A DNA stretch of 51,929 bases from an uncultured Rhodospirillaceae bacterium (lineage in GTDB: Bacteria > Pseudomonadota > Alphaproteobacteria > CAAGCB01 > CAG-977), in contig USCC01000003.1 of assembly GCA_900553035.1 (NCBI GenBank), positions 1 to 51,929 on the forward strand, read 5' to 3'. The notes beneath the pieces were generated by a model. That model made no database searches. It was not told the origin of the DNA and worked only from the letters and a program-made list of their open reading frames with translations. Shown here in pieces: positions 2,145-38,596 of the stretch. The first letter of the stretch is position 1, and each line of letters opens with the position of its first letter. The position numbers were made by a program, and so were the translations under genes.

Positions 2145-2147
2145 GGA

Positions 2148-3371: not shown

Positions 3372-3372
3372 G

Positions 3373-3720: not shown

Positions 3721-3736
3721 ATTGAGCCTCCGATAT

Positions 3737-4657: not shown

Positions 4658-4779
4658 GCCTGCGGAAAACACCGAGCCGGAAACAGGCCGGCGTTTTTCC
4701 GTTCCCGCGCCGATACAGCCTTTCCTTTTTCTTTGAAAGAAAAAGAGGTAGAATAATCTGAATAAGGAAGGAGAACGGC

Positions 4780-5988: not shown

Positions 5989-6039
5989 GGATGTGCCGCT
6001 ACGTCGGGCGCCGGCCTCTGTATGAGGACGCGCGGAAAT

Positions 6040-6696: not shown

Positions 6697-6774
6697 TTTC
6701 TTCTCCTTTTTCCTAAGGATACGGCAAACGGGCAGGACCTCAAAACATGAAAACGCATGAAAGGAAAAAAAGAC

Positions 6775-6805
6775 TTGATTTAGAGTTAACTTTATGGCGT
6801 AGGGT
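6775..6805 (+). promoter_or_regulatory. MerR-style promoter (19-nt spacer) with palindromic operator, upstream of MBL hydrolase
   Basis: TTGATT(6775-6780)-19 nt-TAGGGT(6800-6805). The spacer starts with TAGAGTTAACTTTA, a near copy of the palindrome at 7936-7949. Confidence 0.5.
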
Positions 6806-6836
6806 TTAACCGTCCGTCTGATTCAAAAGGAAAGCC

Positions 6837-7919
6837 ATGACGAAAATGATTTTATATCCGGCCGTTGTTTTGCTGCTTCTGCTTGCCGTGCTGACTCTGT
6901 ACGCGCTCAGGGAAATGGGAGCGTCTCCTTCCGCAGAAGAATCGGCGGCGTTTGAAAAGTTGCCGTATTTCAGAAACGGTCAGTTCCGGAATCCCGAACC
7001 GCTTCCCGCGCCGATGAGCGGCGAATATGAAGACCGGGTAAATCTGGCAAGACTTCTTCTGGCCTCTCCTCATGGCCCCCAAAAGCCGCTGCCGCAGGTC
7101 AGGCTTGACCGTTCGTCGTTTCCGGAGGTTCCCGAAGACGGCGCCGTTTACTGGCTGGGGCACGCTTCCGCGATTCTGGAGCTGAACGGCCGGCGTATTG
7201 CCGTTGATCCGGTGTTCGGCAATGCTTCCCCGATTCCCTTTACGGTCAGAAGGTATCAGGCGCCTCCTCTGGATCAAAAGGAAATGCCGGAGCCGGATTA
7301 CGTTCTTCTGACGCATAATCATTACGACCATCTGGAACGCCGGACGGTGCGCGCCTTTAAAAAAGCGCATTTCATTGTGCCGTACGGCCTGAAATCGGCT
7401 TTGCGAGGCTGGGGAATTGAAGAGGCGCGCATCACGGAAATCGGATGGAACGAAAGTTTCGAGCAGGACGGAATCCGGTTTACGGCCGTTGAGGGGATTC
7501 ATTTTTCCGGACGAAGCCTGAGCGACGGCAACAGGACGCTGTGGAATTCGTATGTTATCCGGACGCCGCGGCATAATATTTTCTGGGGCGGTGACAGCGG
7601 TTACGGAAAGCATTATGCCGAAATCGGCCGGACGCTGGGGCCTTTTGACTGGGCGGCTCTGGAAACGGACGCATGGAACGGCGGCTGGCCCGGTATCCAT
7701 ATGTTTCCCGGCCAGACCGTGCAGGCCGCCCTTGATTTGCGGGCAAAGCGCGTCCTGCCGATTCACTGGGGTGTTTATGACCTGGGGGGACATCCGTGGC
7801 AGAAATCCATCAACCGGATTGTGGAAAACGCCGAAGGAAAGCCTTTTGAACTGATGACGCCGATGATGGGAGAAAAGCTGATTCCCGGTGAAACCGAAAC
7901 AACCTTCTGGTGGCGCTGA
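6837..7919 (+). CDS. MBL-fold metallo-hydrolase with N-terminal TM/signal anchor (NAPE-PLD-like)
   Basis: HxHxDH motif LLTHNHYDHL. Hydrophobic N-terminus MTKMILYPAVVLLLLLAVLTLYAL. 360 aa. Confidence 0.85.
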   Translation: MTKMILYPAVVLLLLLAVLTLYALREMGASPSAEESAAFEKLPYFRNGQFRNPEPLPAPMSGEYEDRVNLARLLLASPHGPQKPLPQVRLDRSSFPEVPEDGAVYWLGHASAILELNGRRIAVDPVFGNASPIPFTVRRYQAPPLDQKEMPEPDYVLLTHNHYDHLERRTVRAFKKAHFIVPYGLKSALRGWGIEEARITEIGWNESFEQDGIRFTAVEGIHFSGRSLSDGNRTLWNSYVIRTPRHNIFWGGDSGYGKHYAEIGRTLGPFDWAALETDAWNGGWPGIHMFPGQTVQAALDLRAKRVLPIHWGVYDLGGHPWQKSINRIVENAEGKPFELMTPMMGEKLIPGETETTFWWR

Positions 7920-7929
7920 AAAAAATGTA

Positions 7930-7960
7930 TTGACTTAGAGTTAACTCTAAATATTAAGCT
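7930..7960 (+). promoter_or_regulatory. MerR-style promoter (19-nt spacer) with perfect palindrome TAGAGTTAACTCTA
   Basis: TTGACT(7930-7935)-19 nt-TAAGCT(7955-7960). The 14-bp perfect palindrome at 7936-7949 lies inside the spacer. ATG 7990 is 29 nt downstream. Confidence 0.55.
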
Positions 7961-7989
7961 TGTATCATCATTTCGTTTCAGGAGGAAAA

Positions 7990-8631
7990 ATGAACAGGCG
8001 TCATTTTATCAAGGCGGTTTTAACGGTAGCGGCTGTCGCCGCTTTTCCGAAAGGGGTTTTGCCGGATGTGCCGCCGGGATCCGGGAGAAAAAAAATGAAA
8101 ATTACGGTTTTAACCGGAAGCCCCCATGAAAAGGGGACTTCCGCACTTCTTGCCGACGAGTTCATACGGGGAGCGACGGAAGCCGGGCATGAGGTCTTTC
8201 GCTTCAACGCGGCTTTTGAAGACGTCCATCCCTGTATCGGGTGCGACCGCTGTGGGCTTGGGGCGCGCAAATGCGTTTTTAACGACGCAATGGACAGGCT
8301 GAATCCTCATCTGCTGGAGGCCGATGTCCTGGTTTTTGTCACGCCTTTGTATTATTTCGGCATGTCGGCTCAGCTGAAGACCGTCATTGACCGGTTTTAT
8401 GCGAATAACTACAGGATCATGGAAGGCGGCCGGAAATCCATCCTTATGGCAACAGCCTGGAACAATGACGACTGGACCATGACCGACCTGACACATCATT
8501 ACCGGACTCTGGTTCGGTACCTGAAAATGCAGGATGTCGGCATGGTTCTGGCCAAAGGGTGCGGCCGCCGCAGCGATATTGAAAATTCAGATTATCCCCA
8601 ACAGGCTTACAGGCTCGGGAAATCTCTTTAA
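7990..8631 (+). CDS. Iron-sulfur flavoprotein (Isf/flavodoxin-like) with possible Tat signal
   Basis: AGGAGG RBS before ATG 7990. N-terminus MNRRHFIKAVLTVAAVAAFP fits the twin-arginine pattern. Flavodoxin-like core MKITVLTGSPHEKGTS. Compact Cys motif CIGCDRCGLGARKC (CX2CX2CX6C). Confidence 0.75.
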   Translation: MNRRHFIKAVLTVAAVAAFPKGVLPDVPPGSGRKKMKITVLTGSPHEKGTSALLADEFIRGATEAGHEVFRFNAAFEDVHPCIGCDRCGLGARKCVFNDAMDRLNPHLLEADVLVFVTPLYYFGMSAQLKTVIDRFYANNYRIMEGGRKSILMATAWNNDDWTMTDLTHHYRTLVRYLKMQDVGMVLAKGCGRRSDIENSDYPQQAYRLGKSL

Positions 8632-8655
8632 AAATCGGCAGAGGAGGAGGACAGG

Positions 8656-9195
8656 ATGAAGATCACAGTCATTACCGGCAGCCCGCACAGAAACGGGACT
8701 TCCGCACTTCTTGCCGATGAGTTCATACGGGGCGCGTCCGAAGGCGGCCATGATATTTTCAGATTTGACGCCGCCTTTTCAAACGTTCATCCCTGTAGAG
8801 CATGTGAAGCCTGCGCCATGGGGCGGCAGAAATGCGTTTTCAGGGATGATATGGATGTTTTGGAGCCGCATCTGCGGGCGGATGATGTCATCGCGTTTGT
8901 CACGCCGTTATATTATTACGGCATGTCGGCTCAGATCAAAACAGTCATTGATCGTTTCCATGGCAGTGGGATGAATCTTGAAAAGCGTCCTAAAAAGGCG
9001 GTTTTTATGGCAACGGCCTATAATCCCGCGTCTTGGGCGATGGATGATATCGTCGGACATTACCGGACGATCATCCGGTATCTGGGATGGGAGGATGCCG
9101 GAACGGTTCTGGCTGTCGGATGCGGCGTTCGAGCCGATATTGAACGGACGGATTTTCCCAAGAAGGCCTATGTTTTGGGAAAGTCGTTTTCCTGA
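8656..9195 (+). CDS. Iron-sulfur flavoprotein (Isf family), cytoplasmic paralogue
   Basis: 179 aa, clearly paralogous to the core of the preceding gene. MKITVITGSPHRNGTSALLADEFIRG. CRACEACAMGRQKC (CX2CX2CX6C). No signal peptide. Confidence 0.85.
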   Translation: MKITVITGSPHRNGTSALLADEFIRGASEGGHDIFRFDAAFSNVHPCRACEACAMGRQKCVFRDDMDVLEPHLRADDVIAFVTPLYYYGMSAQIKTVIDRFHGSGMNLEKRPKKAVFMATAYNPASWAMDDIVGHYRTIIRYLGWEDAGTVLAVGCGVRADIERTDFPKKAYVLGKSFS

Positions 9196-9207
9196 TTTTC
9201 GGAGGGC

Positions 9208-9708
9208 ATGAACATGAAGAACGAAAAAATCTTTTATTACAAATTTGAACCGATCAACGCATGGTTTGTTTTCAACACTGCTCTGCTGATCGTCCTGCTT
9301 TACGGAAGCTTCCGATGTCCGTTTCTGCTCTCTTGGTGGCAGACACAAGTGTTATGGGACGGGGCGGTGTTTTCCGTGCTGGCGTGGGGGTACAAATACC
9401 TGCTGAAACACCGGGCGGCTGTGATTGATGACGAGGCCGTCACCATTGACCATTGCCGTCCGCTTCCGTGGGCGGACATCCGAGCCGCCGAAGAGAAAAC
9501 CGTGAAATGCGGACTGCGTAAATACAGGGTGATTGTCCTGGAGCCGAAAGAGGGGATTGATTACAGGTACAATTTCCTGCAAAAGCACAATTGCCGGTTT
9601 TCCCCTTTTTCAATTCCGCTTTACGGGATTCTCTCGGATGAGGATATCGCGGAAATAAAAAGGCTTATTTCCGAAAAAGTCGGTCCTGTCCGGACGGCGG
9701 AAGAATAA
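9208..9708 (+). CDS. Hypothetical membrane protein
   Basis: 166 aa with two predicted N-terminal TM helices and a soluble C-terminal half. Last gene before terminator 9723-9748. Confidence 0.55.
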   Translation: MNMKNEKIFYYKFEPINAWFVFNTALLIVLLYGSFRCPFLLSWWQTQVLWDGAVFSVLAWGYKYLLKHRAAVIDDEAVTIDHCRPLPWADIRAAEEKTVKCGLRKYRVIVLEPKEGIDYRYNFLQKHNCRFSPFSIPLYGILSDEDIAEIKRLISEKVGPVRTAEE

Positions 9709-9722
9709 AAAAACGATCCCGG

Positions 9723-9748
9723 AAAGCCCCGCGGAAGCGGGGCTTTTT
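9723..9748. terminator. Bidirectional intrinsic terminator
   Basis: aaagccccgc-ggaa-gcggggcttttt. Sits between convergent genes ending at 9708 (+) and 9769 (-). Confidence 0.75.
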
Positions 9749-9768
9749 CATGAACGGATGTTTCTCCT

Positions 9769-10980
9769 TCAACGCAGGGGGCCGTTCTGCTCTGTCCAAC
9801 GAGGGGCGCCAGAAACGGAGGCCGTATTTTTGAGCGGCCCGCTTTGCCGGAGGAATACAAAGAATGCTCCGAATATCAGGAAAAGAACGGCTCCAAAAAC
9901 AACAGGGCTTAATCCGATCCCCGAAATGATTCCGCCGCAGACGAACGTACCGGCGGCAGTACCCAGATTCGCCGAGGTCAGGAATAATCCATTGGCAAAA
10001 TCCGAAGCCTCCGGCGCGGCCGAAGAAATCATATACTGCCCGCTGTTGCCGGCGATACCGCCCAGGATCCCCAGAATAAAAACAAGGGCTGCCGCCGGGA
10101 CAATGAAGCGGCCGGCAAAAAACAGGGCGGTGTAAACGGCGATCAGAGCAAAGGGAATGCTCTTAATCGTTTTCCCGGGATTCAGAGCCAGCATTTTTCC
10201 GGCAAACATATTGCCGATGATGTTGGATACTCCGTATATGAACAGGAGCAGGCTGATGATTTTGAACGAAACGCCGGTGATGTTTTTAAGGTAGTCGGAC
10301 AGGTAGCTGAAAAAACCGAACAGAGCGCCGTTGATGAAAATAACGGCCAGAACGGAATACCATACGACAGGTTTTTTCAGGACACTCAGCTGCTGGCCGT
10401 ACGAGATTCTTTCCCTGACCGGCAGAGACGGAACGAAAATAAGCGTCGCCACGAAAACCACGACATTGATGGCGGCAAAAAACAGCATGGCCGCAGCGAA
10501 GGAAGTTTCTCCGGCGATGAAGCTTGTTGCCGGGACGCCCAACACCATGCCCGCCGAAACGCCGATGAATACTTTGGCAACGGCTTTGGGCACATCCTTT
10601 TTATCCGCAGAGCCGGCCGCGACCGTAAAGGCCATGGAAACATAAACCGGATGGAAAAAAGCCGGAATGACCCGGGCGGCTAGGATGACCGTAAAATCCT
10701 GCGTCAGCATGGAAACGATATTGCCGGCAATGAAAATCCCCAGCGAAAGCAGCATGGCGGATTTACGGTTCATCCCGGACAGCAGCAGAGGCATCACCGG
10801 CCCCGAAACAGCCACGACCAGGGCAAAAAGGCTGACCGTTTTCCCGGCTTCCGGAACGCTGACGTGAAACGTTTCCGCGATCAGAGGGATAATCCCGACG
10901 ACGCCCATCTCGGTATTGATGATGCCGAAGACGCCAAGGGTTAAAATGAAGACCAGAAGGCTGTTTGAGCTGTTTTTCAT
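9769..10980 (-). CDS. MFS transporter (DHA1-like)
   Basis: About 12 hydrophobic helices. Start placed at ATG 10980 (MKNSSNSLLVFILTLGVFGI) instead of track start 11061. Confidence 0.85.
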   Translation of the reverse strand: MKNSSNSLLVFILTLGVFGIINTEMGVVGIIPLIAETFHVSVPEAGKTVSLFALVVAVSGPVMPLLLSGMNRKSAMLLSLGIFIAGNIVSMLTQDFTVILAARVIPAFFHPVYVSMAFTVAAGSADKKDVPKAVAKVFIGVSAGMVLGVPATSFIAGETSFAAAMLFFAAINVVVFVATLIFVPSLPVRERISYGQQLSVLKKPVVWYSVLAVIFINGALFGFFSYLSDYLKNITGVSFKIISLLLFIYGVSNIIGNMFAGKMLALNPGKTIKSIPFALIAVYTALFFAGRFIVPAAALVFILGILGGIAGNSGQYMISSAAPEASDFANGLFLTSANLGTAAGTFVCGGIISGIGLSPVVFGAVLFLIFGAFFVFLRQSGPLKNTASVSGAPRWTEQNGPLR

Positions 10981-11172
10981 ATCCGTTTCCGATTTTTTTT
11001 TGATCAATGCTGTGAAGGCGGAAAGATCGTTCAAAACCACCGTTATCCCGATATTCTTCACGGTGATATCCCTCTTCCTTTCCCTCCTTTTGAAGCGGCT
11101 GCCCCCGTGAAAAGAGGGGCAGCGCTTCGGTTTCGCAGGACGGCGATCAGCAGAATTTTCATGCCGTCCTTT

Positions 11173-12231
11173 TCATTTCAGATTTTTTTTGAAAAACGCT
11201 TCCAGCTTTCCAAACGGAATGAGGTCAACGCGGTCATACAGATCGACATGGCCTGCTTCGGGAACGATCACCAGTTCTTTTGGTTCGATAGCACGCCGGT
11301 AGGCCTCCTGACTGAACTCAATCGAATGAGCCTTTTCCCCGGTGATGAACAGAAGCGGCCGCGGCGAGATCGTTTCAATGTCATTGAACGGATAGAAGTT
11401 CATGAATTTGGTGTTGCTGCTCAGCGTCGGATGGGTCGTCTGTTCGGAAGACGCGCCTGCCGGTGTGAACTCACCTCTGGGCGTGCGGTAGAACTCAAAG
11501 AATTCCCGTTCGATCGGCGTCGTGTTTTCATTGATTTCATGGACGGTTCCGCTGGTATATTTTCTTTTGCCGCCCGTAAATTCGGCGTACCGCTGTTCGG
11601 CGGCTTCGGCGATAATCTTTTTTCTCTGTTCCAGAGAGAGAGACTTGTTCAGTCCGTGACGGCTGGCCGATCCCATATCGTACATGCTGACGGTCGCAAC
11701 GGCTTTGAGGCGGGGATCTATTTTGGCCGCGCTGATGGCAAAGCTTCCACTGCCGCAGATTCCGATCACTCCGATTCCGTCCGGATCAACGAACGGCCTT
11801 GTCCCCAGATAATCTGCCGCCGCGCTGAAGGCTTCCGCGTACATGTCGGGAGAAACGCTGTTGCGGGGCGTGCCGCCGCTTTCTCCCCAGAAGGGGAGGT
11901 CTATGGCCAGGGTGACAAAGCCTTTTTCCGCCATTTTCGTCGCGTAAAGATTCGCGCTCTGCTCCTTGACGGCTCCCATGGGGTGCCCGACAACGATTGC
12001 CGGAAGCTTTTTCTTTCCGTCAAAGTCCTTCGGCATGAAAAGATTTCCCGCAATATTCATGTCGTACTGGTTTTTGAAGGTCACTTTCTGCAGGGTGACT
12101 TTGTCGCTTGTGTAAAAGTTATCTGCATCTTTCGGCATGTCTGCTCCTGAGGCGGCGGATGTTGATAAAAGAACTCCAAACAGGGCCGTCAGAACAGGTC
12201 TGGCGGCAGAATGCGGTTTGTTTGTCGGCAT
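11173..12231 (-). CDS. Secreted alpha/beta hydrolase (dienelactone-hydrolase-like)
   Basis: Signal peptide MPTNKPHSAARPVLTALFGVLLSTSAASGA. Nucleophile-elbow-like GVIGICGSGSF. C-terminal HVDLYD region. The opposite-strand 347-aa ORF is Arg-rich shadow. Confidence 0.8.
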   Translation of the reverse strand: MPTNKPHSAARPVLTALFGVLLSTSAASGADMPKDADNFYTSDKVTLQKVTFKNQYDMNIAGNLFMPKDFDGKKKLPAIVVGHPMGAVKEQSANLYATKMAEKGFVTLAIDLPFWGESGGTPRNSVSPDMYAEAFSAAADYLGTRPFVDPDGIGVIGICGSGSFAISAAKIDPRLKAVATVSMYDMGSASRHGLNKSLSLEQRKKIIAEAAEQRYAEFTGGKRKYTSGTVHEINENTTPIEREFFEFYRTPRGEFTPAGASSEQTTHPTLSSNTKFMNFYPFNDIETISPRPLLFITGEKAHSIEFSQEAYRRAIEPKELVIVPEAGHVDLYDRVDLIPFGKLEAFFKKNLK

Positions 12232-12262
12232 GTTTTTCTCCTTTGAGTGCGGTTAAAATGAA

Positions 12263-12496
12263 TCACGGTGTTTTGCTTTTGAGGCTGAACATCAGAAAAT
12301 CGAGGCAATCGATTTTTTTCTGGTCTTCATGCAGGGTTCGCACCAAAAGCTTTCTGTGGCCGGACAGCAGGCGGAGCTGCCGAATCGTTCCTCCTTCTTT
12401 TTCCAGCTGAAAAAACGTCCGGATCATGCGGGTATCGCAGCCGGCGTCTTTGAGGGTACGGAGAAGATCGGTTTCTTTTTTTGATGCGTCAGTCAT
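12263..12496 (-). CDS. Small hypothetical protein (77 aa), divergent from LysR gene
   Basis: Intact ORF with reasonable composition. No family assigned. Confidence 0.4.
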   Translation of the reverse strand: MTDASKKETDLLRTLKDAGCDTRMIRTFFQLEKEGGTIRQLRLLSGHRKLLVRTLHEDQKKIDCLDFLMFSLKSKTP

Positions 12497-12629
12497 TCGG
12501 CTGTCCTTTCATGTTTTTATTATGGGAGGCCGGGCGGATGATAGCAAATACTTATATCTTATGAAGAGATATGCTTTACAGGCATTTCATGAAACGCTAA
12601 TATTGAAAAAACACACAAAGGAAACCCTC

Positions 12630-13520
12630 ATGGAACTCAGAGTCTTACGCTATTTTCTGGCCGTCGCACGCGAAGGCAGCGTCACCGGCGCCGCCCGTTT
12701 TCTGAACGTCACACAACCCACCCTTTCCCGGCAGATCAGGGAGCTGGAGGAAGAATTGGGGCAACAGTTGTTCGTCCGCGGCAGTCACAGCGTTTCCCTG
12801 ACGGCGGAAGGAATGATTTTAAGGAAGCGAGCCGAAGAGATTGTCGATATGGTCGGCAAGACCAAAGCCGAATTCAGCGCGATGCAGGAAACGGTCGGCG
12901 GCGACATTCATATCGGCGGCGGCGAAACCGAAGGCATGAAACTGATCGCCGATGTCATCAACGGCCTGCGCCGGGATTATCCTGACATTCATTACCATCT
13001 GTACAGCGGCAATGCCGAGGACTTAAGCGAACGCCTGGATAAGGGACTGCTTGATTTCTGTGTGCTTATTCAGCCGATTGATCTGTCAAAATATGACTAC
13101 ATCGATATGCCTGTCAAAGACGTATGGGGCGTCATCATGCACAAAGACAGCCCTCTGGCTCGGAAGGAAGCCGTGGAGCGCGCGGATCTGCTGAAACTGC
13201 CGCTTGTGTGTTCCCGGCAGGCGATTCGTCCGGCCGCGCCGCATAACGAATTTCTGGACTGGTTCGGGGACGATTTTCAAAAGCTTGATATCATTGCGAC
13301 ATATAATCTGCTTTTCAACGCCGCGCTTCTGGCAGAACAGGGGGTCGGCTATGTGATTACGCTGGATAAGCTTGTCAATCCGATGAATACCGGCGTGTGC
13401 TTCCGGCCCTTTGAACCGAAGCTGGAAGCCGGGCTGAGCGTCGTCTGGAAAAGGTATCAGGTGTTTTCGCCGGCCGCCCGGATTTTTCTGGACGCGTTGC
13501 GAAGGAAACTTGCCGCATGA
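12630..13520 (+). CDS. LysR-family transcriptional regulator
   Basis: MELRVLRYFLAVAREGSVTGAARFLNVTQPTLSRQIRELEEELGQQLF is a canonical LysR HTH. Start set at ATG 12630. Confidence 0.9.
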   Translation: MELRVLRYFLAVAREGSVTGAARFLNVTQPTLSRQIRELEEELGQQLFVRGSHSVSLTAEGMILRKRAEEIVDMVGKTKAEFSAMQETVGGDIHIGGGETEGMKLIADVINGLRRDYPDIHYHLYSGNAEDLSERLDKGLLDFCVLIQPIDLSKYDYIDMPVKDVWGVIMHKDSPLARKEAVERADLLKLPLVCSRQAIRPAAPHNEFLDWFGDDFQKLDIIATYNLLFNAALLAEQGVGYVITLDKLVNPMNTGVCFRPFEPKLEAGLSVVWKRYQVFSPAARIFLDALRRKLAA

Positions 13521-13568
13521 AATATTCGGTGCGGCCGGAACCGGATCGGGGCGCCCTTTTCCGGAAAG

Positions 13569-14129
13569 CTAATACAGGATGATTCCCGCACCCGCGCTGA
13601 GGAACATGATCCAGACCGGATTTGTTTTGAACCGGCGCAGAAGCAGCATTGATACCGCCGCAACAGCCATGGCATAAAAATCAAAATCGTTGATTTCCGG
13701 CGTGATGTAATTATGCCCGGTGAGCGCCAGCAGCAGAATTCCGGCACCGGCCGCACCGATTAAGCCGGTCGCCACGGCTTTCAATCCCCGCAGAACCGCC
13801 ATAATCACATCAGAACTCCGATAACGACAGAAAAAGCGGTATCCGGCCAAAGAAATGACCACACCGGAAAAAATACAGCTGAATGTTGCCACAACAGCGC
13901 CGGCGATCCCCGCGATTTTCAATCCGACAAAGCTGGAAGCATTAATGGCCAGAGGCCCGGGCGTCATCTGTGAAATGGTGATGATGTCGGTATATTCTTT
14001 CATCGTCAGCCAATGATACTGATTGACCAGCAGGTCTTCAATCAGGGCGATGATGGCATATCCGCCGCCGATGCTGAAGCTGCCGATTTGCCAGAAGTTA
14101 AGAGCCAGTTCCGGAAGTTTTTCAAACAT
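13569..14129 (-). CDS. Chromate transporter family protein (ChrA half-size, second of pair)
   Basis: 186 aa hydrophobic with SFSIGGGYAIIALIE and ISQMTPGPLAIN motifs typical of the CHR family. Starts 1 nt after its partner. Confidence 0.85.
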   Translation of the reverse strand: MFEKLPELALNFWQIGSFSIGGGYAIIALIEDLLVNQYHWLTMKEYTDIITISQMTPGPLAINASSFVGLKIAGIAGAVVATFSCIFSGVVISLAGYRFFCRYRSSDVIMAVLRGLKAVATGLIGAAGAGILLLALTGHNYITPEINDFDFYAMAVAAVSMLLLRRFKTNPVWIMFLSAGAGIILY

Positions 14130-29527: not shown

Positions 29528-29599
29528 TCTGCGGGGATATTTTCCCTCTTGTGCTTTTTACGTCGCTGCCTTATTGTCAAAAACAAAAGCAAATCCGCC

Positions 29600-29650
29600 G
29601 TTTGCAGTGAACTGTTCAGAATATTATCGTCGGTGTCGTTTTCCTAAAAT
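29600..29650 (+). promoter_or_regulatory. Late promoter 1: 26-bp conserved motif + 19 nt + TAAAAT
   Basis: GTTTGCAGTGAACTGTTCAGAATATT (29600-29625) is identical to 37532-37557. TAAAAT at 29645-29650 has the same spacing as at the second copy. Confidence 0.55.
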
Positions 29651-32514: not shown

Positions 32515-34044
32515 ATGGCTGTTTTATTAGATCGGTTCGGTAATCCCGTCAAAACGTCGAATTTAACGAAAGAGGACGCTTCCTGTCTGATTGCGGGCGT
32601 TCGGATGCATGAATCGGGGTATCCGTCTTTCGGGCTGACGCCTAAAAAACTGTCAAGCCTGCTTAGATCGGCCGACGACGGCGATATGGACGCTTATTTG
32701 GATCTGGCCGAAGAAATGGAAGAAAAGGAACCGCAGTACCTTTCCGTTTTAGGGACGCGCAAACGCGCCGTGTCGCAGCTGGACGTCAGCGTCGAAGCCG
32801 CGGGAAGCTCTGCCGAAGAGGAAAAACACGCCGATTTCGTGCGCGAATTTATCGCTCGCGACACGCTTTCCGACGAACTGTTCGACCTGATGGACGCGGT
32901 CGGCAAAGGCTTTTCTGTTTCGGAAATCGTTTGGGAATGTTCGGAAAAACAATGGAAACCCGTCAAAATTCAGCACGTCAATCCGAAATGGTTTTCTTTG
33001 GACAAGGATATGCGGACGCTGTTGTTAAAAACGCAGGACGGCAAAGTTCCGCTTGAACCGTTTAAATATATTCAGTGCGTCATGAATGCAAAGTCGGGGC
33101 TTCCTCTTCGCGGCGGTCTGGCGCGTGTCGTGTCTTGGTATTATATGTTTAAAAACTTTGACGTTAAAAGCTGGGTTACCTTTTTAGAGGTTTACGGCCA
33201 GCCTTTGCGCGTCGGCAAATACGGGACGAACGCGACGCAAAAGGACAAAGAAACGCTGATGCGCGCCGTTTACAACATCGGCGCGGACACGGCGGCGTGC
33301 ATTCCCGAAAGCATGATGATCGAGTTCATCACGGCGCAAAATTCGGGGTCGGCGGAACTGTATCAACAGTTCGCGCAGTATGTCGATTTGATGATTTCAA
33401 AAATCGTTTTGGGGCAAACGACAACGACGGACGCCGTATCGGGCGGACACGCGGTTTCAAAAGAACATAACGAAGTCCGCCGCGACATCATGCGATCCGA
33501 CGCCAAGCAGCTGGCCGCTGTTTTAAAGCGCGATTTGATTATCCCGATGATTGATTTGAACTTCGGGACGCAGAAAAATTATCCGAACATACGCATCGGA
33601 AATTTCGACGACGAGGATTTAACGGCACTGTCCGACACCTTGTCAAAGCTGGTGCCGCTGGGGCTTCAAGTATCCGCGTCGCAGGTGCGTTCAAAAATCG
33701 GTCTTGACGCGCCGAAGGACGAAAACGACATTTTGAAATATGCCGCTCCGTCCTTTGATACGGCTTTTAATCAGGCGAAAAAATCTTTAAACGAAACCGA
33801 AAAATCTGAACCGGATTCCGTTGACGAAGCCGTCAAGGAAATGGAAGCCGAATGGGAGCGCGTTTTAACGCCCGTTATTTGTCCGGTTGAACGGCTTTTA
33901 AACGATTGTCACAGCTATGACGAGGCTTTTCAACGCCTTGCCGAAGCGTATCCGGACATGGATGCGGCGGCTTTGACGGAATATCTGGCGCAGGCCTTGT
34001 TCAAAGCAAATTTAAACGGGCGTTTAAATCATGGCCGGAATTGA
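32515..34044 (+). CDS. Portal protein (Mu gp29-like, DUF935)
   Basis: 509 aa from ATG 32515 (MAVLLDRFGNPV). Follows the terminase. DUF935-like LRSADDGDMDAYLDLAEEMEEKEPQYLSVLGTRK. Confidence 0.88.
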   Translation: MAVLLDRFGNPVKTSNLTKEDASCLIAGVRMHESGYPSFGLTPKKLSSLLRSADDGDMDAYLDLAEEMEEKEPQYLSVLGTRKRAVSQLDVSVEAAGSSAEEEKHADFVREFIARDTLSDELFDLMDAVGKGFSVSEIVWECSEKQWKPVKIQHVNPKWFSLDKDMRTLLLKTQDGKVPLEPFKYIQCVMNAKSGLPLRGGLARVVSWYYMFKNFDVKSWVTFLEVYGQPLRVGKYGTNATQKDKETLMRAVYNIGADTAACIPESMMIEFITAQNSGSAELYQQFAQYVDLMISKIVLGQTTTTDAVSGGHAVSKEHNEVRRDIMRSDAKQLAAVLKRDLIIPMIDLNFGTQKNYPNIRIGNFDDEDLTALSDTLSKLVPLGLQVSASQVRSKIGLDAPKDENDILKYAAPSFDTAFNQAKKSLNETEKSEPDSVDEAVKEMEAEWERVLTPVICPVERLLNDCHSYDEAFQRLAEAYPDMDAAALTEYLAQALFKANLNGRLNHGRN

Positions 34045-35323
34045 TTTTTCCCCTTTGCCGCCCGCCGAAGCCATCCGTTTTTTTCAAAAAAAAGGATATA
34101 AAATCGGCTTTGACTGGCGCGATGTCTGGAAAGAGGAGCACGCGATCGCCTTTACGGTTGCCAAAGCGATGCAGATTGACATTTTGCAGGATATTCGCTC
34201 CGCTTTGCAGGACGCTTTGGAAAACGGCACGACGTTTGATCAGTTTAAAAAAGATCTGATTCCCGTTTTGCAAAAAAAGGGCTGGTGGGGAAAACGGGAA
34301 ATGCCTGATTCGAAAACGGGATTGACGGAAAAGGTAACGCTCGGCACGCCGCGCCGCCTGTCAATCATTTACGACACGAACATTCGCACGGCGTATGCGG
34401 CGGGAGAGTGGGCGGCGATTGAAGAAAACGCCGAAGACGCGCCTTATTTGCGATATGTCTGCGTTCTGGATGAACGCACGCGGGCGCAACACCGTCAATG
34501 GCATGATTTGATTTTGCGCTATGACGATCCGTTCTGGGCGACGCATTATCCGCCGAACGGATGGAAATGCCGTTGTTCCGTCATTCAATATTCCGATAAC
34601 GATTTAAAGCGGCGCGGTTTCGTACCGTCAAAAAGCCCTCAAATTCGCTATACCGAATGGGAAAACAAACGAACGGGGAAAATCGAACGGATTCCAGAAG
34701 GCATCGCGCCGGGGTTTGATTATAACGTCGGCAAAGCCAGATACCGCGCTTTTACGCCTGAACCTGACGGCAATCCGCCGCAGACGTTCCAAAACCGCGC
34801 CGCCGAACTGCCGCCTTTGCCCGAAGCCTCGCCGATGCCGGAAAATTCCGTTTTGCCCGAAGGATTGAGCGATACGGAATACGCCCGCGCTTTTTTGTCC
34901 GAGTTCGGCGCGGATATCGGAAAAACCGTCGTTTATACCGATGTTGTCGGAGAACCGCTTGTCATCGACGAAGGGCTGTTTTTGAATAAACGGTCTCAAA
35001 CCCTTAAATCAGGCAAAAATAAACGCGGAAAATTTATGCGCCTGTTAGCTTATGCATTAAAAAATCCGGATGAAATCTGGCTGCGCTGGGAAAATGAAAA
35101 AACAACCGGCAAACCTGTTTTGAAAAGGCGATATATTAAAATCTATCAGACTGAAGACGGTAGCCATTGTCTGACTGTATTTGAAAAAGGCCAAAAGACA
35201 TGGAAAGGTGCAACAACGTTTCCAGCAAAAGCAGGAAAGCCTGAACAAACGAAAAACAATTATATCAATCAATATCGAGATGGTTTTTTGGCATATAAAA
35301 AACGCCAGTCGAATAGCAACTGA
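34031..35323 (+). CDS. MuF-like minor head protein (gp30) with extra AT-rich C-terminal domain
   Basis: MuF/SPP1 gp7 core ...TRAQHRQWHDLILRYDDPFWATHYPPNGWKCRCSV. About 110 additional residues (LAYALKNPDEIWLRWE...IKIYQTEDGSHCLTVFEKG) are encoded by visibly lower-GC DNA. Confidence 0.88.
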   Translation: MAGIDFSPLPPAEAIRFFQKKGYKIGFDWRDVWKEEHAIAFTVAKAMQIDILQDIRSALQDALENGTTFDQFKKDLIPVLQKKGWWGKREMPDSKTGLTEKVTLGTPRRLSIIYDTNIRTAYAAGEWAAIEENAEDAPYLRYVCVLDERTRAQHRQWHDLILRYDDPFWATHYPPNGWKCRCSVIQYSDNDLKRRGFVPSKSPQIRYTEWENKRTGKIERIPEGIAPGFDYNVGKARYRAFTPEPDGNPPQTFQNRAAELPPLPEASPMPENSVLPEGLSDTEYARAFLSEFGADIGKTVVYTDVVGEPLVIDEGLFLNKRSQTLKSGKNKRGKFMRLLAYALKNPDEIWLRWENEKTTGKPVLKRRYIKIYQTEDGSHCLTVFEKGQKTWKGATTFPAKAGKPEQTKNNYINQYRDGFLAYKKRQSNSN

Positions 35324-35429
35324 CGTTCAGATGCATTCCTACGATTCCGCTATTCGGAGCGTTATGCATCCTTAATTTATTTTATTATGCCATCAATGAA
35401 ATGAAAAATCAAGATTAAGGAATTTTAAC

Positions 35430-35534
35430 ATGACGGTGCCCGTCTGTACCTGTCCGGGGGTCATTGATTTGTTTTATCCGAGCCTTTTCCTTTTTTTCGG
35501 ATTTGTCCTGTGGCTGATGTTTAAACACGCATAA
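35430..35534 (+). CDS. Possible small hydrophobic peptide (34 aa)
   Basis: MTVPVCTCPGVIDLFYPSLFLFFGFVLWLMFKHA. taagga lies upstream. Followed by terminator 35553-35585. Confidence 0.3.
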   Translation: MTVPVCTCPGVIDLFYPSLFLFFGFVLWLMFKHA

Positions 35535-35552
35535 AAAACAAAAACCGAAAAT

Positions 35553-35585
35553 AAAGCCGCGTCATGCGGCTTTGTCATTTTTCGG
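35553..35585 (+). terminator. Intrinsic terminator
   Basis: aaagccgc-gtcat-gcggcttt followed by gtcattttt. Confidence 0.7.
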
Positions 35586-35703
35586 CTATCGTTTTACGTT
35601 ATCAAATCCAAAACGCACACAGCCCCGTTTAATACCCGTTTAACTTCGATGTTTTTTATGGAAATTTTTCCTAATTTATAGATTTTTAAAAATTTGTCAG
35701 TTA

Positions 35704-35712
35704 TGGTACAAT
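35704..35712 (+). promoter_or_regulatory. Extended -10 promoter element of island 2
   Basis: TGgTACAAT, 21 nt upstream of ATG 35733 with AGGAG (35721-25) between. Confidence 0.5.
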
Positions 35713-35732
35713 CAAACAAAAGGAGAACGTTC

Positions 35733-36638
35733 ATGGATAAGCCTTTTTTATATTCACGTCAAAAAGTGATTTTAGCCTTATTAGAGGCATTTGGCGGAAC
35801 GTTGCCTAAAACGGATATGCAAAAGTATATATTTCTTTTTACGCAACGTTGTCAAAAAGAAGGGGAACGTAGTTATGATTTTATTCCTTATAAATATGGC
35901 TGTTACTCTTTTCAATTTGAAAAAGATCGCCAAACTTTGGCGGATATGGGCATAATATTCGGAGATGATTGGCGGCTTCCTGATGGTAATGAAATATATT
36001 TAAAAATGTTTGATAAAACAGAACAGTCAAAAATGCGTTATTTTGCTGAAATATACAAGAAAAAGCATGGAGATGCATTGTTGCATGAAGTTTATACAAA
36101 GTATCCATATTATGCCATAAACAGCGAAGTGAAAGAAAGAGTTTTAAACCGAGAAGAATTAGAAAAAGTAAAGGTTTCTGTTCCTCATAATGATTCTGTT
36201 TGTTTCTTCACCATTGGTTATGAAGGAAAAACCATAGAAAATTATATTAACCGCCTGATTAAAAATAATATTCATCTGGTTTGTGATGTTAGAGCCAATC
36301 CATTTAGTCGAAAATATGGATTTTCTCAGCGTGACTTATCCGTATTGTTAAAAAAAATTGGAATTGAATATGTGCATATGCCTGAATTGGGAATAGTTTC
36401 AGATAAACGCCAAGAATTAAAGACTCAAGAAGATTATGACGCTTTATTTTCTTGGTACGAAAAAAATATTCTTCCAACAAAAACAGAAATATTGAACAAA
36501 TTAAAAGATATGCTAATGCAATATACGCGCATAGCTATCACTTGCTTTGAAGCAGATGTCAAGCAATGCCATAGGGGACGAATTGCAAAAATTCTATCTG
36601 AACAATCGGACTGGAATACGCCAATAGAACATATCTAG
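35733..36638 (+). CDS. YwgA/SocA(Panacea)-like N-terminal domain fused to DUF488 domain
   Basis: N-terminus: MQKYIFLFTQ...YDFIPYKYGCYSFQFEKDRQTLADMGII. C-terminus has DUF488 hallmarks: FFTIGYEGKT, VCDVRANPFSRK, YVHMPELG, ITCFEADVKQCHRGRIAKIL. Start set at ATG 35733, not TTG 35694. Confidence 0.8.
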   Translation: MDKPFLYSRQKVILALLEAFGGTLPKTDMQKYIFLFTQRCQKEGERSYDFIPYKYGCYSFQFEKDRQTLADMGIIFGDDWRLPDGNEIYLKMFDKTEQSKMRYFAEIYKKKHGDALLHEVYTKYPYYAINSEVKERVLNREELEKVKVSVPHNDSVCFFTIGYEGKTIENYINRLIKNNIHLVCDVRANPFSRKYGFSQRDLSVLLKKIGIEYVHMPELGIVSDKRQELKTQEDYDALFSWYEKNILPTKTEILNKLKDMLMQYTRIAITCFEADVKQCHRGRIAKILSEQSDWNTPIEHI

Positions 36639-36639
36639 C

Positions 36640-37485
36640 ATGAAAAAAGAAAAAATCTTTATAACTGTCAAAACATACCCATCTATTTCTACTTCCTATG
36701 GTGAATTAGTATGTACGGCCGGCATTCGTGAGGATGGTTCATGGATCCGCATTTATCCTGTGCCTTTTAGGACATTAGAAACATGGAGACAATATAAAAA
36801 ATATCAATGGATAGAAGCATTGATTGAAAGGAATGAAGCTGACATTCGGCCCGAAAGTTTTAAAGTTATTGATATTGATAATATTAACTTATTGGATGAA
36901 GTAAAAAATTGGGATGAACGAAAAAAGATTATTTTGTCAAAAAATAAAATTTATGATGATCTGGAAGAACTTATTGATTTAGCAAAAAATAAAAACTTAT
37001 TGTCTTTGGCTGTTTTTAAACCCAAACATATAAAGCGTCTAAAAATAAAAAGAGAAAAAGAAGACAAGAAACAATTAGAAAAGAAAGTGACTTTGAAGGC
37101 AAGATCAAAGCAGATAAACCTTTTCGGTCAGTCTTTTGATGATTTTGAACCGGTTGATCGGCTTCCTTTTAAGTTTTCATATGTTTTTGAAGATATTAAA
37201 GGAAGAGAAAGTTCTTTAATGATTGAAGATTGGGAAATTGGTGTTTTGTATCGGAATTGTTTTTTGAATGCTAGAAAAAAGAATAAAAATCTTTCAGAAG
37301 ATGAGCTTATGCAAATAGCCGCTCAAAAAGTCAAAGAAAAATATGAAGATAAATTCTTAAAAGAAAATGATATTCTTTTATTTTTGGGAACGACAAAAGA
37401 GTATCATAAAATTGCTCCTAATCCTTTCGTTATTATTGGAGTATTTTATCCTCCAATAGAAAAACAACTTGATCTTTTCTTTTGA
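36640..37485 (+). CDS. Uncharacterised 281-aa protein, translationally coupled to the DUF488 fusion
   Basis: ATG follows the upstream stop by 1 nt. N-terminus TVKTYPSISTSYGELVCTAGIREDGSWIRIYPVPFR, then a Lys/Glu-rich linker, then a C-terminal domain with no recognisable motif. Very AT-rich. Confidence 0.75.
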   Translation: MKKEKIFITVKTYPSISTSYGELVCTAGIREDGSWIRIYPVPFRTLETWRQYKKYQWIEALIERNEADIRPESFKVIDIDNINLLDEVKNWDERKKIILSKNKIYDDLEELIDLAKNKNLLSLAVFKPKHIKRLKIKREKEDKKQLEKKVTLKARSKQINLFGQSFDDFEPVDRLPFKFSYVFEDIKGRESSLMIEDWEIGVLYRNCFLNARKKNKNLSEDELMQIAAQKVKEKYEDKFLKENDILLFLGTTKEYHKIAPNPFVIIGVFYPPIEKQLDLFF

Positions 37486-37531
37486 CATTTTTCCAAATCG
37501 GGGCAATATAAAAACGGCGGGAATCCTGACG

Positions 37532-37582
37532 GTTTGCAGTGAACTGTTCAGAATATTTTTAAAATTCCCGTCCCCCTAAAAT
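37532..37582 (+). promoter_or_regulatory. Late promoter 2 (PI analogue): same 26-bp motif + 19 nt + TAAAAT
   Basis: GTTTGCAGTGAACTGTTCAGAATATT at 37532-37557 and TAAAAT at 37577-37582. The gpI-like ATG at 37589 is only 6 nt downstream of the -10. Confidence 0.55.
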
Positions 37583-37588
37583 GGGGGC

Positions 37589-38596
37589 ATGAAAAACGAA
37601 ACCGAAAAATTTAAATTAGCCCGCGCCGAAACCTCTGCCGTCCTGATCGGGACGGAAGACGAAAACGCCGTGCCGAACGTGATCCGTCTGATGCCCGTCG
37701 GGGACATCGCCGGGCGCGACGGGCGGCGTTTTTATCTGGATGATCCCGAAACGGTCATTGCAGAAACGGCCGTGTATAAAAAGAATCTCGATCTTTTAAT
37801 CGATTATAACCATCAGTCCGAATATGCAGAACAAAACGGCCGGCCCGCGCCTGCCGCTGGATGGATGACGGATTTTTTTGTCGCGGACGGACATCTGTGC
37901 GCCACCGTACAGTGGACGGCAAAAGCGGCGGAACACATTAAAAACCGCGAATTTCGCTATATTTCGCCGGTGTTTTTCCATACCGGCGGAAAAATCCGTC
38001 GCATCGTTTCGGCCGCGTTGACAAATACGCCGAATTTTGACTTGAAAGCCCTGAATCAGACACAAAAAAAGGAGAACAGTATGGACAAGGAAAAAGCCCT
38101 TTGTCAGGCCCTGAACGCGCCTGATGAAGAAAATGCCCTTTTGCGTATCGAAGAATTAAAAAGCGCGCAAAAGGAATTAAACGAAATCGCCGCCGCTCTT
38201 GAATGCGAAGCCAAAGCCGAAGCGGTTATCAAAGCCGTAAACGAAACAAAAGCGGATCCCGCAAAATTCGTTGAGATCGACAAGGTCGCCGATCTGACCC
38301 GCGAATTAAACGAAATCAAAGCCGAACGCGCCGAAGAAAAGGCGGAAAACGCGGTCAACGCCGCAATCCGCGACGGCCGTCTGCCGCCGGTTTTAAAAGA
38401 GAACGCTAAAGAAATCTGCAAAAAGATGGGCGAAACGGCGTTGAACGAATTCATTTCAAAAATGCCCAAAATATCCGCGCCGTCTTTGGCCGCGGGCGAA
38501 CCGCCCAAGCCCGCCTGCGACGCTTTGAGCGAAGACGAAAAGGAAATCTGCGAAATCATGGGCATTTCATCGGAAACTTTCAAGAAAGGAAAATAA
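37589..38596 (+). CDS. Head protease/scaffold protein (Mu gpI-like)
   Basis: LIDYNHQSEYAEQNGRPAPAAGWMTDF...REFRYISPVF parallels Mu I (IDYEHQT...NGQPAPAAGW...YRYISPVF). The C-terminal half is Ala/Glu-rich and scaffold-like. Confidence 0.85.
   Translation: MKNETEKFKLARAETSAVLIGTEDENAVPNVIRLMPVGDIAGRDGRRFYLDDPETVIAETAVYKKNLDLLIDYNHQSEYAEQNGRPAPAAGWMTDFFVADGHLCATVQWTAKAAEHIKNREFRYISPVFFHTGGKIRRIVSAALTNTPNFDLKALNQTQKKENSMDKEKALCQALNAPDEENALLRIEELKSAQKELNEIAAALECEAKAEAVIKAVNETKADPAKFVEIDKVADLTRELNEIKAERAEEKAENAVNAAIRDGRLPPVLKENAKEICKKMGETALNEFISKMPKISAPSLAAGEPPKPACDALSEDEKEICEIMGISSETFKKGK

Follow-up and report, generated by a model that had tools for sequence, protein, structure and literature searches.

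Two adjacent genes in the head operon of a Mu-like prophage constitute, judging from profile matches, a new instance of the known anti-phage candidate PDC-M19 and not a new kind of system. The prophage is carried on contig USCC01000003.1 of an uncultured Rhodospirillaceae bacterium; the whole stretch that was analysed, 51,929 nt, is referred to here as the window. Gene 1 matches the PADLOC model PDC-M19A (PDLC04505; E = 2.9e-111, residues 7-301 on profile positions 2-294 of 294), and gene 2 matches PDC-M19B (PDLC04508; E = 5.8e-102, residues 1-280 on profile positions 1-269 of 269). The initial annotation, which was made from the DNA letters, held that the pair matches no named defence system and expected no PADLOC match if the system was novel; PADLOC models exactly this pair, and both proteins were matched full length, so that this claim has to be withdrawn. 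PDC-M19 is one of 145 computational anti-phage candidates (Payne et al., bioRxiv 10.1101/2024.01.29.577857) and is given in the supplement of that study as cassette CAS_00089 with the order FAM_02799>>FAM_02993; the figure 174 beside CAS_00089 is read by us as an instance count. The PDCs come from the PADLOC authors, and the letter M is taken to mean multi-gene. In that study, PDC-M19 was detected inside loci for BREX, DISARM, or type I RM. The string "PDC-M19" was absent from the main texts of the literature that we searched. The window cassette shares with PDC-M19 the full-length match of A and B, the gene order, and the tight coupling, as well as the association of the pair with RM, BREX, or DISARM-type neighbours, and no structural difference was found; what differs is the host, which is the head operon of a Mu-like prophage and not a chromosomal RM, BREX, or DISARM locus. 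In PHROGs, gene 1 falls in phrog_14939 and gene 2 in phrog_25907, and an NCBIfam search gave no match.

The open reading frames were found at the coordinates of the initial annotation. Gene 1 (35733..36638, forward strand; 301 aa) runs from ATG 35733 to TAG 36636-36638, and gene 2 (36640..37485, forward strand; 281 aa) from ATG 36640 to TGA 37483-37485, with a spacer of 1 nt between the gene 1 stop and the gene 2 start. Because 53 of 53 aligned homologues begin at the equivalent Met, gene 1 is considered to start at ATG 35733 and not at TTG 35694. A Shine-Dalgarno sequence, AGGAG (35721..35725, forward strand), is located 7 nt 5' of this ATG, and AAGGAG is kept before gene 1 in a copy of the cassette in a defence island, L084. 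The upstream neighbour is a MuF gene with a PBECR2 domain (34031-35323), and the downstream neighbour encodes Mu-like protease I (the protease/scaffold gene, 37589-38596). The GC content is 0.28-0.35 over 35400-37400 and about 0.50 on either side (0.313 for the cassette vs 0.503 for the remaining window), in agreement with the AT-rich switch previously described between MuF and a late-promoter motif.

The boundaries of the cassette are exact and come from two independent comparisons. The sister phage L100 lacks it and carries 28 nt in its place: window positions 35437-35660 align to L100 5633-5857, and window positions 37475-37620 align to L100 5886-6032, which delimits a mobile cassette, consisting of promoter, gene 1, and gene 2, at about 35661..37474 on the forward strand. 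The homology of the island L084 to the window spans 35671-37466 at 79%, and this copy, which is 80-82% identical, is accompanied by hsdRMS (type I RM), a reverse transcriptase (RT), an M78 peptidase, AbiEii, and an integrase. The AT-rich foreign composition of the cassette is seen in two unrelated contexts, the window and L084. In the sister phage L101, another defence candidate, PDC-M24, occupies the same gap instead of the cassette, while in the sister phage L102 the cassette proteins show 97% amino acid identity and the flanking genes merely 85-88%. As judged from these sequence comparisons, the cassette is real and mobile and is traded horizontally. These informative sister phages came from a metagenome scan; a viral-contig scan with the protease found no sister phage, blastn of the region against GenBank phages gave short matches only, and an exact-protein look-up of the protease returned the same phage only.

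The same comparisons bear on whether the pair belongs to the conserved core, or to the structural genes, of this Mu-like lineage, as its location among the head genes and in their orientation, and the presence of both genes in every contig with an identical protease, would suggest. L100 and L101, whose MuF and protease are 84-88% identical to those of the window, are without the cassette, which refutes this reading. Gene 2 was found in 7 phage records, all from Gordonia phages, and in none of the 317 phage records with a Mu-like protease; a close copy lies outside any phage (L084), and the difference in GC content (0.31 vs 0.50) also argues against a core function, to which we attach practically no credence. 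The description of the locus as a foreign moron in the Mu head module is therefore upheld by the cassette-less sisters, as far as its accessory, non-core status is concerned.

Temperate phages and satellites have hotspots for defence genes, such as cargo slots of the P2/P4 type. The slot in the window resembles them as a fixed position in the backbone that holds alternative cassettes (PDC-M19, PDC-M24, or nothing), whereas it belongs to another phage family, is situated in the late head operon, and is insulated by a terminator together with a second copy of the late-promoter repeat. The terminator is predicted as an intrinsic-terminator-like hairpin with a T-run (35551..35585, forward strand; stem 35551-35575, T-tail to about 35585), whose RNA fold of -21 kcal/mol (z = -3.7) was equalled by none of 200 shuffles. 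It is predicted to end transcription from the MuF side and looks bidirectional. On the other side of the cassette, a 25-nt phage repeat (37531..37555, forward strand) was delineated by repeat search and alignment; its sole other copy (29599-29623) precedes the late operon, and 0 copies are expected by chance. The late-promoter motif annotated near 37532 is accordingly a genuine repeat, and it is probable that it serves as a late promoter or an activator site from which transcription of the head genes resumes 3' of the cargo slot. Both the terminator and the repeat are retained in L100 and L101, and because they are present in sisters without the cassette, we assign them to the phage backbone. 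Of the insulating terminator that had been proposed as part of the cassette, the hairpin itself is real; it is the attribution to the cassette that does not stand.

The cassette carries a putative sigma-70-like promoter of its own (TTTAAA-16-TACAAT, with TG-n before the TACAAT; 35685..35712, forward strand), detected by a scan with 9 of 12 matches plus the TG. The scan taken alone is at chance level, with 12 sites found vs 9.7 expected. The promoter region is conserved in the L084 copy in an unrelated genomic context, which favours the original proposal that the cassette possesses its own extended -10 and ribosome-binding site. The scan revealed no terminator-like site 3' of gene 2, and therefore read-through into the head genes would need explaining. 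A search of the region against Rfam gave one sub-threshold chance match, IS009 (20.6 bits vs a gathering score of 117). The Neisseria DUS, looked for as an indication of the host, is absent.

Relatives of gene 2 are encoded in at least 589 species genomes of many phyla. Among the best 80 loci, a gene 1 homologue was directly upstream on the same strand in 75 of the 75 loci with upstream room, and the spacing of the two genes was -8 to +15 nt in 73 of 76 loci; the two-gene module that had been postulated is thus borne out by strict co-occurrence. Cassette homologues are about 50% identical between phyla. About one-sixth of the immediate neighbours elsewhere are RM, DISARM, BREX-helicase, AbiE, STAND, or integrase genes, which, together with the L084 island, agrees with the anticipated surroundings of defence genes, and many other chromosomal neighbours of the pair are ordinary housekeeping genes. 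In Nocardia and Mycolicibacterium, a stand-alone DUF488-N3a gene (157-163 aa) is convergent with the OB gene, and in Gordonia phages a DUF488 gene without the N-domain is likewise convergent with the OB gene. Because the pair persists as a bare DUF488 plus an OB gene in Actinobacteria and Gordonia phages, we regard DUF488 with OB as the conserved core and the N-domain of gene 1 as dispensable and outside it.

Gene 1 consists of a family-specific N-domain (residues 1-152) and DUF488 (residues 158-291). The DUF488 domain noted in the initial annotation was confirmed by Pfam (PF04343; E = 1.2e-25, 90.9 bits vs a cutoff of 22.2, residues 168-288 on 2-121 of 121), and PF04343 was matched by 54 of 54 gene 1 relatives. 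The score of gene 1 against DUF488-N3a (PF22751) was 24.1 bits, below the cutoff of 27, and all 54 relatives matched this family at E<=1 (best, 8e-7). In the homologue alignment, the DUF488 motifs GYEG, DVR..S.K.GFS, TCFE, and CHR are invariant, with Cys271/Glu273 and Cys279/His280/Arg281 as motif residues in gene 1. The AF2 model has a pLDDT of 91. With the full-length protein as the query, Foldseek gave no significant PDB match (best E = 0.017), and the C-domain matched weakly PTP-fold phosphatases and enzymes of the tetrapyrrole-methylase fold; relatives of gene 1 showed weak Pfam matches to Y_phosphatase2 and PTP-NADK. PDB sequence searches with full-length gene 1 or a profile of the N-domain yielded nothing usable. 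Burroughs and Aravind are said to have placed DUF488, in 2023, in the rhodanese-phosphatase superfamily, with a predicted role in DNA-end processing in conflict systems.

The N-domain, which is probably wHTH-like, had been described as YwgA/Panacea-like. SocA_Panacea (PF13274) gave no match at E<=1 for gene 1 of the window and was not among the 25 most frequent Pfam families of the 54 gene 1 homologues, so that neither gene 1 nor its 53 close homologues have a listed profile match that would sustain this description. Two of 41 distant relatives of the N-domain matched SocA_Panacea (best E = 0.0034), and a relationship to Panacea has faint support from these profile matches.

This bears on the possibility that the pair is a toxin-antitoxin (TA) or addiction module, in which gene 2 would be a growth-arresting toxin, for example one that sequesters ssDNA, and gene 1 would neutralise it through the Panacea-like N-domain. 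The tight two-gene operon with overlapping or nearly overlapping reading frames, the mobility of the pair and its occurrence in islands beside AbiE, and the motif-level resemblance of the N-domain to Panacea, with the faint matches in distant relatives (E 0.003), would fit such a module and remind us of the PanAT TA systems, which are also two-gene operons. However, the cassette differs from PanAT in that no Panacea profile match was found for gene 1 or its close relatives, its N-domain is dispensable in other clades, and gene 2 is without a recognised toxin domain. The Panacea-based TA logic of the initial annotation is also disfavoured by the pairs of Actinobacteria and Gordonia phages, in which a bare DUF488 accompanies the OB protein and the genes are convergent and not co-transcribed; because the N-domain is missing in these pairs, the conserved partnership is that of DUF488 with OB. 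Moreover, each of the two proteins has the look of an enzyme or binder of nucleic acids, with motifs that are strongly conserved and resemble active sites, and we consider a TA module to be very unlikely.

Gene 2, which had been called unassignable, gave a confident AF2 model (pLDDT 86), and its best structural matches by Foldseek were tandem-OB ssDNA binders, namely RPA (E = 4e-5), Teb1, p204/p202 HIN, POT1, and baculovirus LEF-3 (E = 8.5e-5), at low global TM-scores (0.24-0.33). We therefore predict from the model that gene 2 encodes a tandem OB-fold (DuOB-like) protein resembling ssDNA-binding proteins. A PDB sequence search with the gene 2 profile yielded nothing usable. In the alignment, many aromatic, acidic (Glu, Asp), Cys, and His residues are invariant, and the invariant Glu, Asp, Cys, and His residues raise the possibility that gene 2 may itself be an enzyme or a metal binder and not a passive sensor. 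Reportedly, Burroughs and Aravind also described DUF488 or DUF488-N3a with a dual-OB partner, "DuOB" (PF22557). The cassette shares with the system so reported a DUF488 above the Pfam threshold and a partner that is modelled as two OB folds, while it differs in that gene 2 of the window has no match to the DuOB profile and the DUF488-N3a score is below the cutoff. Pfam searches of 54 gene 2 relatives gave noise only, except for one faint DuOB match (1 of 54, E = 0.034). The Gordonia phage protein gp43, a PDC-M19B member (E = 2.5e-48; 26% identical), reached E = 0.0021 against DuOB (18.6 bits vs a cutoff of 27), and in a homologue search from gp43, none of 120 proteins among the matches listed carried a Pfam annotation.

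As regards function, we give about an even chance to the reading that the locus is a lysogen-expressed mobile PDC-M19 cassette in a Mu-like cargo slot, which targets nucleic acids and probably serves to exclude other phages. In the following scheme we infer its lysogen expression, anti-phage role, substrate, and chemistry. The horizontally mobile cassette of ~1.8 kb has moved into a dedicated slot that is bounded by the backbone terminator and the second late-promoter repeat and directly precedes the protease/scaffold gene; it would be transcribed in the lysogen from its own sigma-70-type promoter, with translational coupling giving the two proteins in a fixed proportion. The tandem OB protein of gene 2 would recognise, in a phage that is entering the cell or replicating there, ssDNA or the ends of the DNA. 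The DUF488 domain of gene 1, with its Rossmannoid, phosphatase-like fold and invariant Cys, His, and Arg residues, would supply the chemistry and may modify or process a nucleic-acid terminus by phosphoryl or sugar-phosphate transfer, blocking the competitor at the stage of replication, ligation, or packaging. The N-domain of gene 1 may be an additional part that binds DNA or has a regulatory role.

The same predicted activities could belong to an accessory of DNA repair or metabolism without an immune role, in which end processing by DUF488 and ssDNA binding would tidy damaged or blocked termini, and which phages would carry for the benefit of the lysogen or of replicative transposition. Repair systems typically include ssDNA binders with OB folds and enzymes of the phosphatase type, housekeeping genes adjoin many of the chromosomal copies, and no defence phenotype is described for yeaO, the solitary DUF488 gene of E. 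coli. A repair accessory is, however, at odds with the patchy distribution, which looks like that of horizontally transferred genes (~50% identity between phyla), with the AT-rich foreign composition in both contexts, with the exchange for PDC-M24 at the same slot, and with the copy in an integrase-bounded island together with RM, RT, and AbiE; we rate it as unlikely.

The position of the slot recalls the Mu-like phages of P. aeruginosa, in which the Mu G homologue and the protease/scaffold gene flank an anti-CRISPR region of low-GC accessory DNA. Like the Acr locus of the JBD30/D3112 group of Pseudomonas phages, the window has variable, low-GC, self-promoted cargo in the head module that differs between sisters. 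The pair might accordingly be counter-defence cargo that helps the phage to evade host immunity on infection or induction by masking or re-processing DNA ends or ssDNA; swappable cargo likewise just 5' of the protease/scaffold gene would fit this, and an ssDNA- or end-binding protein with an end-modifying enzyme could protect the linear ends of Mu. The Acr locus of the Pseudomonas Mu-like phages encodes small Acr proteins and an Aca regulator, whereas the window has two large (301 and 281 aa), enzyme-like proteins that are chromosomally widespread, and neither an Aca-type regulator nor any HTH regulator gene was found within the cassette. In addition, the family is mostly chromosomal, occurs in many phyla, and is often beside housekeeping genes; PDC-M19 was found embedded in host defence loci (BREX, DISARM, or type I RM), and the Gordonia-phage pair is located in the lysogeny/immunity region. 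We regard counter-defence as having a low probability and retain a lysogen-expressed PDC-M19 cassette as the preferred reading.

It is a tentative and rather doubtful extension of this preferred reading that DUF488 with a dual-OB protein forms a mechanistically new immunity class, in which an OB sensor would capture phage ssDNA or genome ends for a terminus-altering enzyme of the rhodanese/phosphatase fold, and which temperate phages would trade at dedicated cargo slots to exclude competitors. If it were true, a nucleic-acid terminus would be chemically altered by phosphoryl or sugar-phosphate transfer, instead of DNA being cut or methylated, and the near-isogenic trio of Mu-like phages (with PDC-M19, with PDC-M24, and empty) would make the proposal directly testable. 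The locus offers independent comparative evidence that PDC-M19 acts as a discrete unit of cargo which has its own promoter and is exchanged horizontally. The locus also gives a concrete, testable context to DUF488, a very widespread domain of unknown function, and narrows the mechanism to a conserved core of DUF488 and the tandem-OB protein, not the N-terminal domain. The slot 5' of the protease/scaffold gene, which holds anti-CRISPRs in Pseudomonas Mu-like phages, holds general cargo in an unrelated human-gut Mu-like lineage.

In the Gordonia phage Nymphadora, gp42 and gp43 adjoin the repressor and the integrase. The partner of gp43 is gp42, on the other strand; gp42 is labelled "HipA toxin" and is a DUF488 protein, and the database annotation needs correcting. 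The "immunity repressor" gp44 was considered as a gene 1 equivalent and rejected, as no relation was detected by BLASTP or hhalign. Translation of the window revealed in addition a hydrophobic 34-aa ORF, MTVPVCTCPGVIDLFYPSLFLFFGFVLWLMFKHA (35430..35534, forward strand), of which both peptide and DNA are also present in the sister phages L001 and L100, and which we assign, on the basis of this conservation, to the backbone part of the cargo gap and not to the cassette.

The two-gene cassette between the MuF and protease/scaffold genes of the Mu-like prophage is almost certainly an accessory cassette and a member of PDC-M19, one of the phage defence candidates (PDCs) of PADLOC. While the initial annotation held that the pair matches no named system, a search of PADLOC-DB identified the gene 1 and gene 2 products, both over their full length, as PDC-M19A (2.9e-111) and PDC-M19B (5.8e-102). 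Because the locus shows every sequence-level feature of PDC-M19, we regard it as a new member of a known candidate family. The PDCs were collected by "guilt-by-embedding" in BREX, DISARM, and type I restriction-modification (RM) loci and entered PADLOC; all 145 were described as untested candidates, and the supplement lists cassette CAS_00089 (FAM_02799>>FAM_02993) with the entry "Assign as candidate PDC-M19" (Payne et al., bioRxiv 10.1101/2024.01.29.577857). PHROGs places each protein in a family without known function, and NCBIfam gave no match for either. The pair is therefore neither unnamed nor unnoticed, though uncharacterized, and the locus is a well-delimited natural test case for the PDC-M19 candidate and for DUF488 rather than a categorically new system. 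According to a preprint, DUF488 is found near prophages and defence islands, and YeaO of E. coli is unstudied.

The cassette is cargo rather than phage core. The view that it consists of core phage genes, conserved in most Mu-like phages, is refuted, and the initial proposal of a moron is borne out: the Mu-like protease was detected in 317 GenBank phage records and gene 2 in only 7, all of Gordonia phages (tblastn), and the cassette is absent from two of three sister phages retrieved by a metagenome scan (portal 95–96% identical; MuF and protease 84–88% identical). In the sister L102 the cassette is present with 97–98% amino-acid identity, and is thus more conserved than its flanks. In L100, the segments matching 35437–35660 and 37475–37620 of the window lie 28 nt apart, which places the insertion at ~35661–37474. 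In L101 (ULRP01028818.1), the MuF-protease gap holds an AT-rich two-gene PADLOC candidate, PDC-M24A (154 aa, 1.9e-46) and PDC-M24B (252 aa, 4.7e-97; 4519–5732, GC 0.35), replacing small ORFs of L100 and of the related phage contig L001. The terminator, a 34-aa hydrophobic ORF, and the late-promoter repeat are common to the related phages compared and are therefore backbone features, so that the slot forms an intrinsic island, preceded by a terminator and followed by a promoter that restarts transcription. The finding that a Mu-like head operon has a cargo slot whose content varies (PDC-M19, PDC-M24, or empty) is new. The analogous slot of Pseudomonas Mu-like phages carries anti-CRISPR operons, which speaks for a rival reading of the cassette as counter-defence cargo. 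The small ORFs of L001 (6022–6573) and L100 (4857–5408), encoding 96 and 82 aa between MuF and the hydrophobic peptide, have no counterpart in the window and no PADLOC match; they mark another variable sub-slot of the gap.

The claimed switch in composition was confirmed, since GC content is 0.28–0.35 from the MuF stop codon (35323) to the ATG of the protease/scaffold gene (37589) versus ~0.50 on both flanks, and 0.313 in the two cassette genes versus 0.503 in the remaining window. Both ORFs lie on the forward strand as first drawn: gene 1 (35733–36638), with AGGAG at 35721–35725 and a start Met at a position used by all aligned homologues, and gene 2 (36640–37485), after a 1-nt spacer. The upstream terminator was also found by scan (stem 35551–35575 plus T-run; RNA fold −21 kcal/mol, z = −3.7). 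The cassette's own extended −10 promoter stood only in part: the site (TTTAAA-16-TG-n-TACAAT, 35685–35712) exists and is shared with a copy of the cassette outside phages, but it is weak evidence alone because such sites are no commoner in the region than in shuffles (12 versus 9.7). The late-promoter motif noted at 37532 is a genuine 25-nt repeat, GTTTGCAGTGAACTGTTCAGAATA, with only two copies in the window (29599–29623, before the late operon, and 37531–37555; one mismatch; chance expectation none), each followed after ~20 nt by CCTAAAAT. It is probably a late-activator or late-promoter element, duplicated so that head genes beyond the slot are still expressed.

The non-phage copy, 80–82% identical as a pair, lies on a 124-kb metagenome contig (L084), flanked by type I RM (hsdR, hsdM, hsdS), reverse transcriptase, and M78 peptidase genes at one end and by those for AbiEii and a tyrosine integrase at the other. 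DNA homology (79%) spans 35671–37466 of the window, beginning 62 nt 5′ of the ATG and taking in the −35/−10 and RBS region, and GC content is again 0.31. The L100 and L084 comparisons thus agree on the same boundaries, with the promoter traveling with the genes; both the exact boundaries and the moving promoter are new. Positions 1–14749 of L084 form a defence island in which hsdS carries an inserted 274-aa ORF, the reverse transcriptase has 529 aa and a gene that is also AT-rich (GC 0.31), the M78 peptidase is part of a pair, and AbiEii has a 233-aa partner.

Gene 2 relatives occur in at least 589 genomes (one genome scanned per species) of Proteobacteria, Bacteroidota, Bacillota, Chloroflexota, Planctomycetota, Cyanobacteria, and others. 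The proposed two-component module and the co-occurrence with DUF488 fusions held: of the top 80 loci, 75 have space upstream, and in every one of these a co-directional gene 1 homologue with both N-domain and DUF488 immediately precedes gene 2. The distance between the genes falls between −8 and +15 nt for 73 of 76 loci, and frequent overlaps of −4 or −1 are of the kind that goes with translational coupling. No third conserved gene was found among the immediate neighbours of the loci examined. The suggested defence association was upheld by type IIG and type III RM, DISARM, BREX helicases, AbiEi, STAND NTPases, and integrases among these neighbours, beside many housekeeping genes. Nocardia and Mycolicibacterium pair the OB gene, in convergent orientation and with a 4-nt overlap, with a stand-alone DUF488-N3a gene of 157–163 aa that has no N-domain. 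Gordonia phage Nymphadora (NC_031061) has a convergent pair, gp42/gp43, between the immunity repressor gp44, which it adjoins, and a nearby integrase; gp42 (4822–5274, minus strand) carries the annotation "HipA toxin" but proves to be another DUF488 protein that stands alone, without the N-domain (hhalign 99.3%, 1.6e-20, motifs kept), which corrects the phage annotation. Because the pairing persists without the N-domain, DUF488 and the dual-OB protein form the conserved functional core across co-directional and convergent architectures, whereas the N-domain was added in particular clades, which speaks against a toxin-antitoxin logic that depends on it. Both the recognition of this core and the corrected annotation are new.

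The gene 1 product has a DUF488 domain (Pfam, 1.2e-25, residues 168–288), a DUF488-N3a match below threshold, and the invariant motifs GYEG, DVR-N-S-K-GFS, LGI-S-R, TCFE, and CHR. Its AlphaFold model (pLDDT 91) had no significant PDB neighbour over the whole chain; its weak matches, a guide only to the general kind of protein, were to PTP-fold phosphatases, tetrapyrrole-methylase-fold enzymes, and methyltransferases of the wHTH-plus-Rossmann type. The N-domain (residues 1–152) has no relative in PDB; in the 50% library it counts 765 cluster representatives, which are almost always joined to DUF488. It had been called Panacea-like; SocA_Panacea gave no match for gene 1, was not among the families listed for its 53 close homologues, and was touched by only 2 of 41 distant relatives (E ≥ 0.003), so the relation is at best a remote-homology lead. 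Residues 27–136 (35759–36140) partially match the C terminus of a PADLOC model for type I specificity subunits (8.4e-7, profile 431–550/554), which suggests that the N-domain is also fused to some HsdS proteins.

The gene 2 product, once considered unassignable, has no Pfam domain and no PDB sequence relative, but its AlphaFold model is confident (pLDDT 86) and its best PDB matches (Foldseek) are tandem-OB ssDNA binders (RPA filament, 4e-5; Teb1, p204/p202 HIN, POT1, and RMI), the best viral ones being baculovirus LEF-3 and phage SSBs. Because global TM-scores are low (0.24–0.33), we predict two OB-like barrels rather than a named family; this predicted assignment of the B protein is new. Its 26% identical homologue Nymphadora gp43 matches PDC-M19B (2.5e-48) and touches Pfam DuOB ("Dual OB-containing domain") at 2e-3. 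About 50 positions are invariant among 54 aligned sequences, aromatic-rich and including E22, C25, D68, R70, E72, E196, D197, E199, C207, and H256.

As shown above, the two genes form a self-contained unit that is mobile; one product has two OB folds, and the other a DUF488 domain in which Cys, His, Arg, and Glu residues are invariant. We give an anti-phage or exclusion role about an even chance; a non-immune accessory to DNA repair and a toxin-antitoxin or addiction module are rival readings. In the scheme that we favour for the anti-phage role, though its specific mechanism has a low probability, expression in the lysogen would be driven by the cassette's promoter, the OB protein would bind ssDNA or DNA ends of invading or replicating phage, and DUF488 would act as a phosphatase or transferase on the end of a nucleic acid and so block the competitor. 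The enzymatic reading draws on weak fold and Pfam similarities and on work of Burroughs and Aravind (2023), who reportedly placed DUF488 in the rhodanese-phosphatase superfamily and predicted DNA-end processing in conflict systems.

The cassette is flanked by MuF upstream and Mu-like protease I downstream, and L001, a metagenomic phage contig with 94% identity, has the complete Mu arrangement (terminase, portal, MuF, cassette, protease, capsid, tail). MuF (34031–35323) ends in PBECR2 (a Barnase/EndoU/ColicinE5/RelE-like nuclease; PF18810, 4.6e-31), and thus carries a fused toxin-type domain; its C-terminal part is the region most divergent among sister phages. The strongly hydrophobic 34-aa ORF, MTVPVCTCPGVIDLFYPSLFLFFGFVLWLMFKHA (35430–35534), just 5′ of the backbone terminator and kept in L001 and L100, may encode a small membrane peptide. 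Positions 1–14000 of the window resemble host chromosome, and contigs with the identical phage originate from human gut metagenomes.
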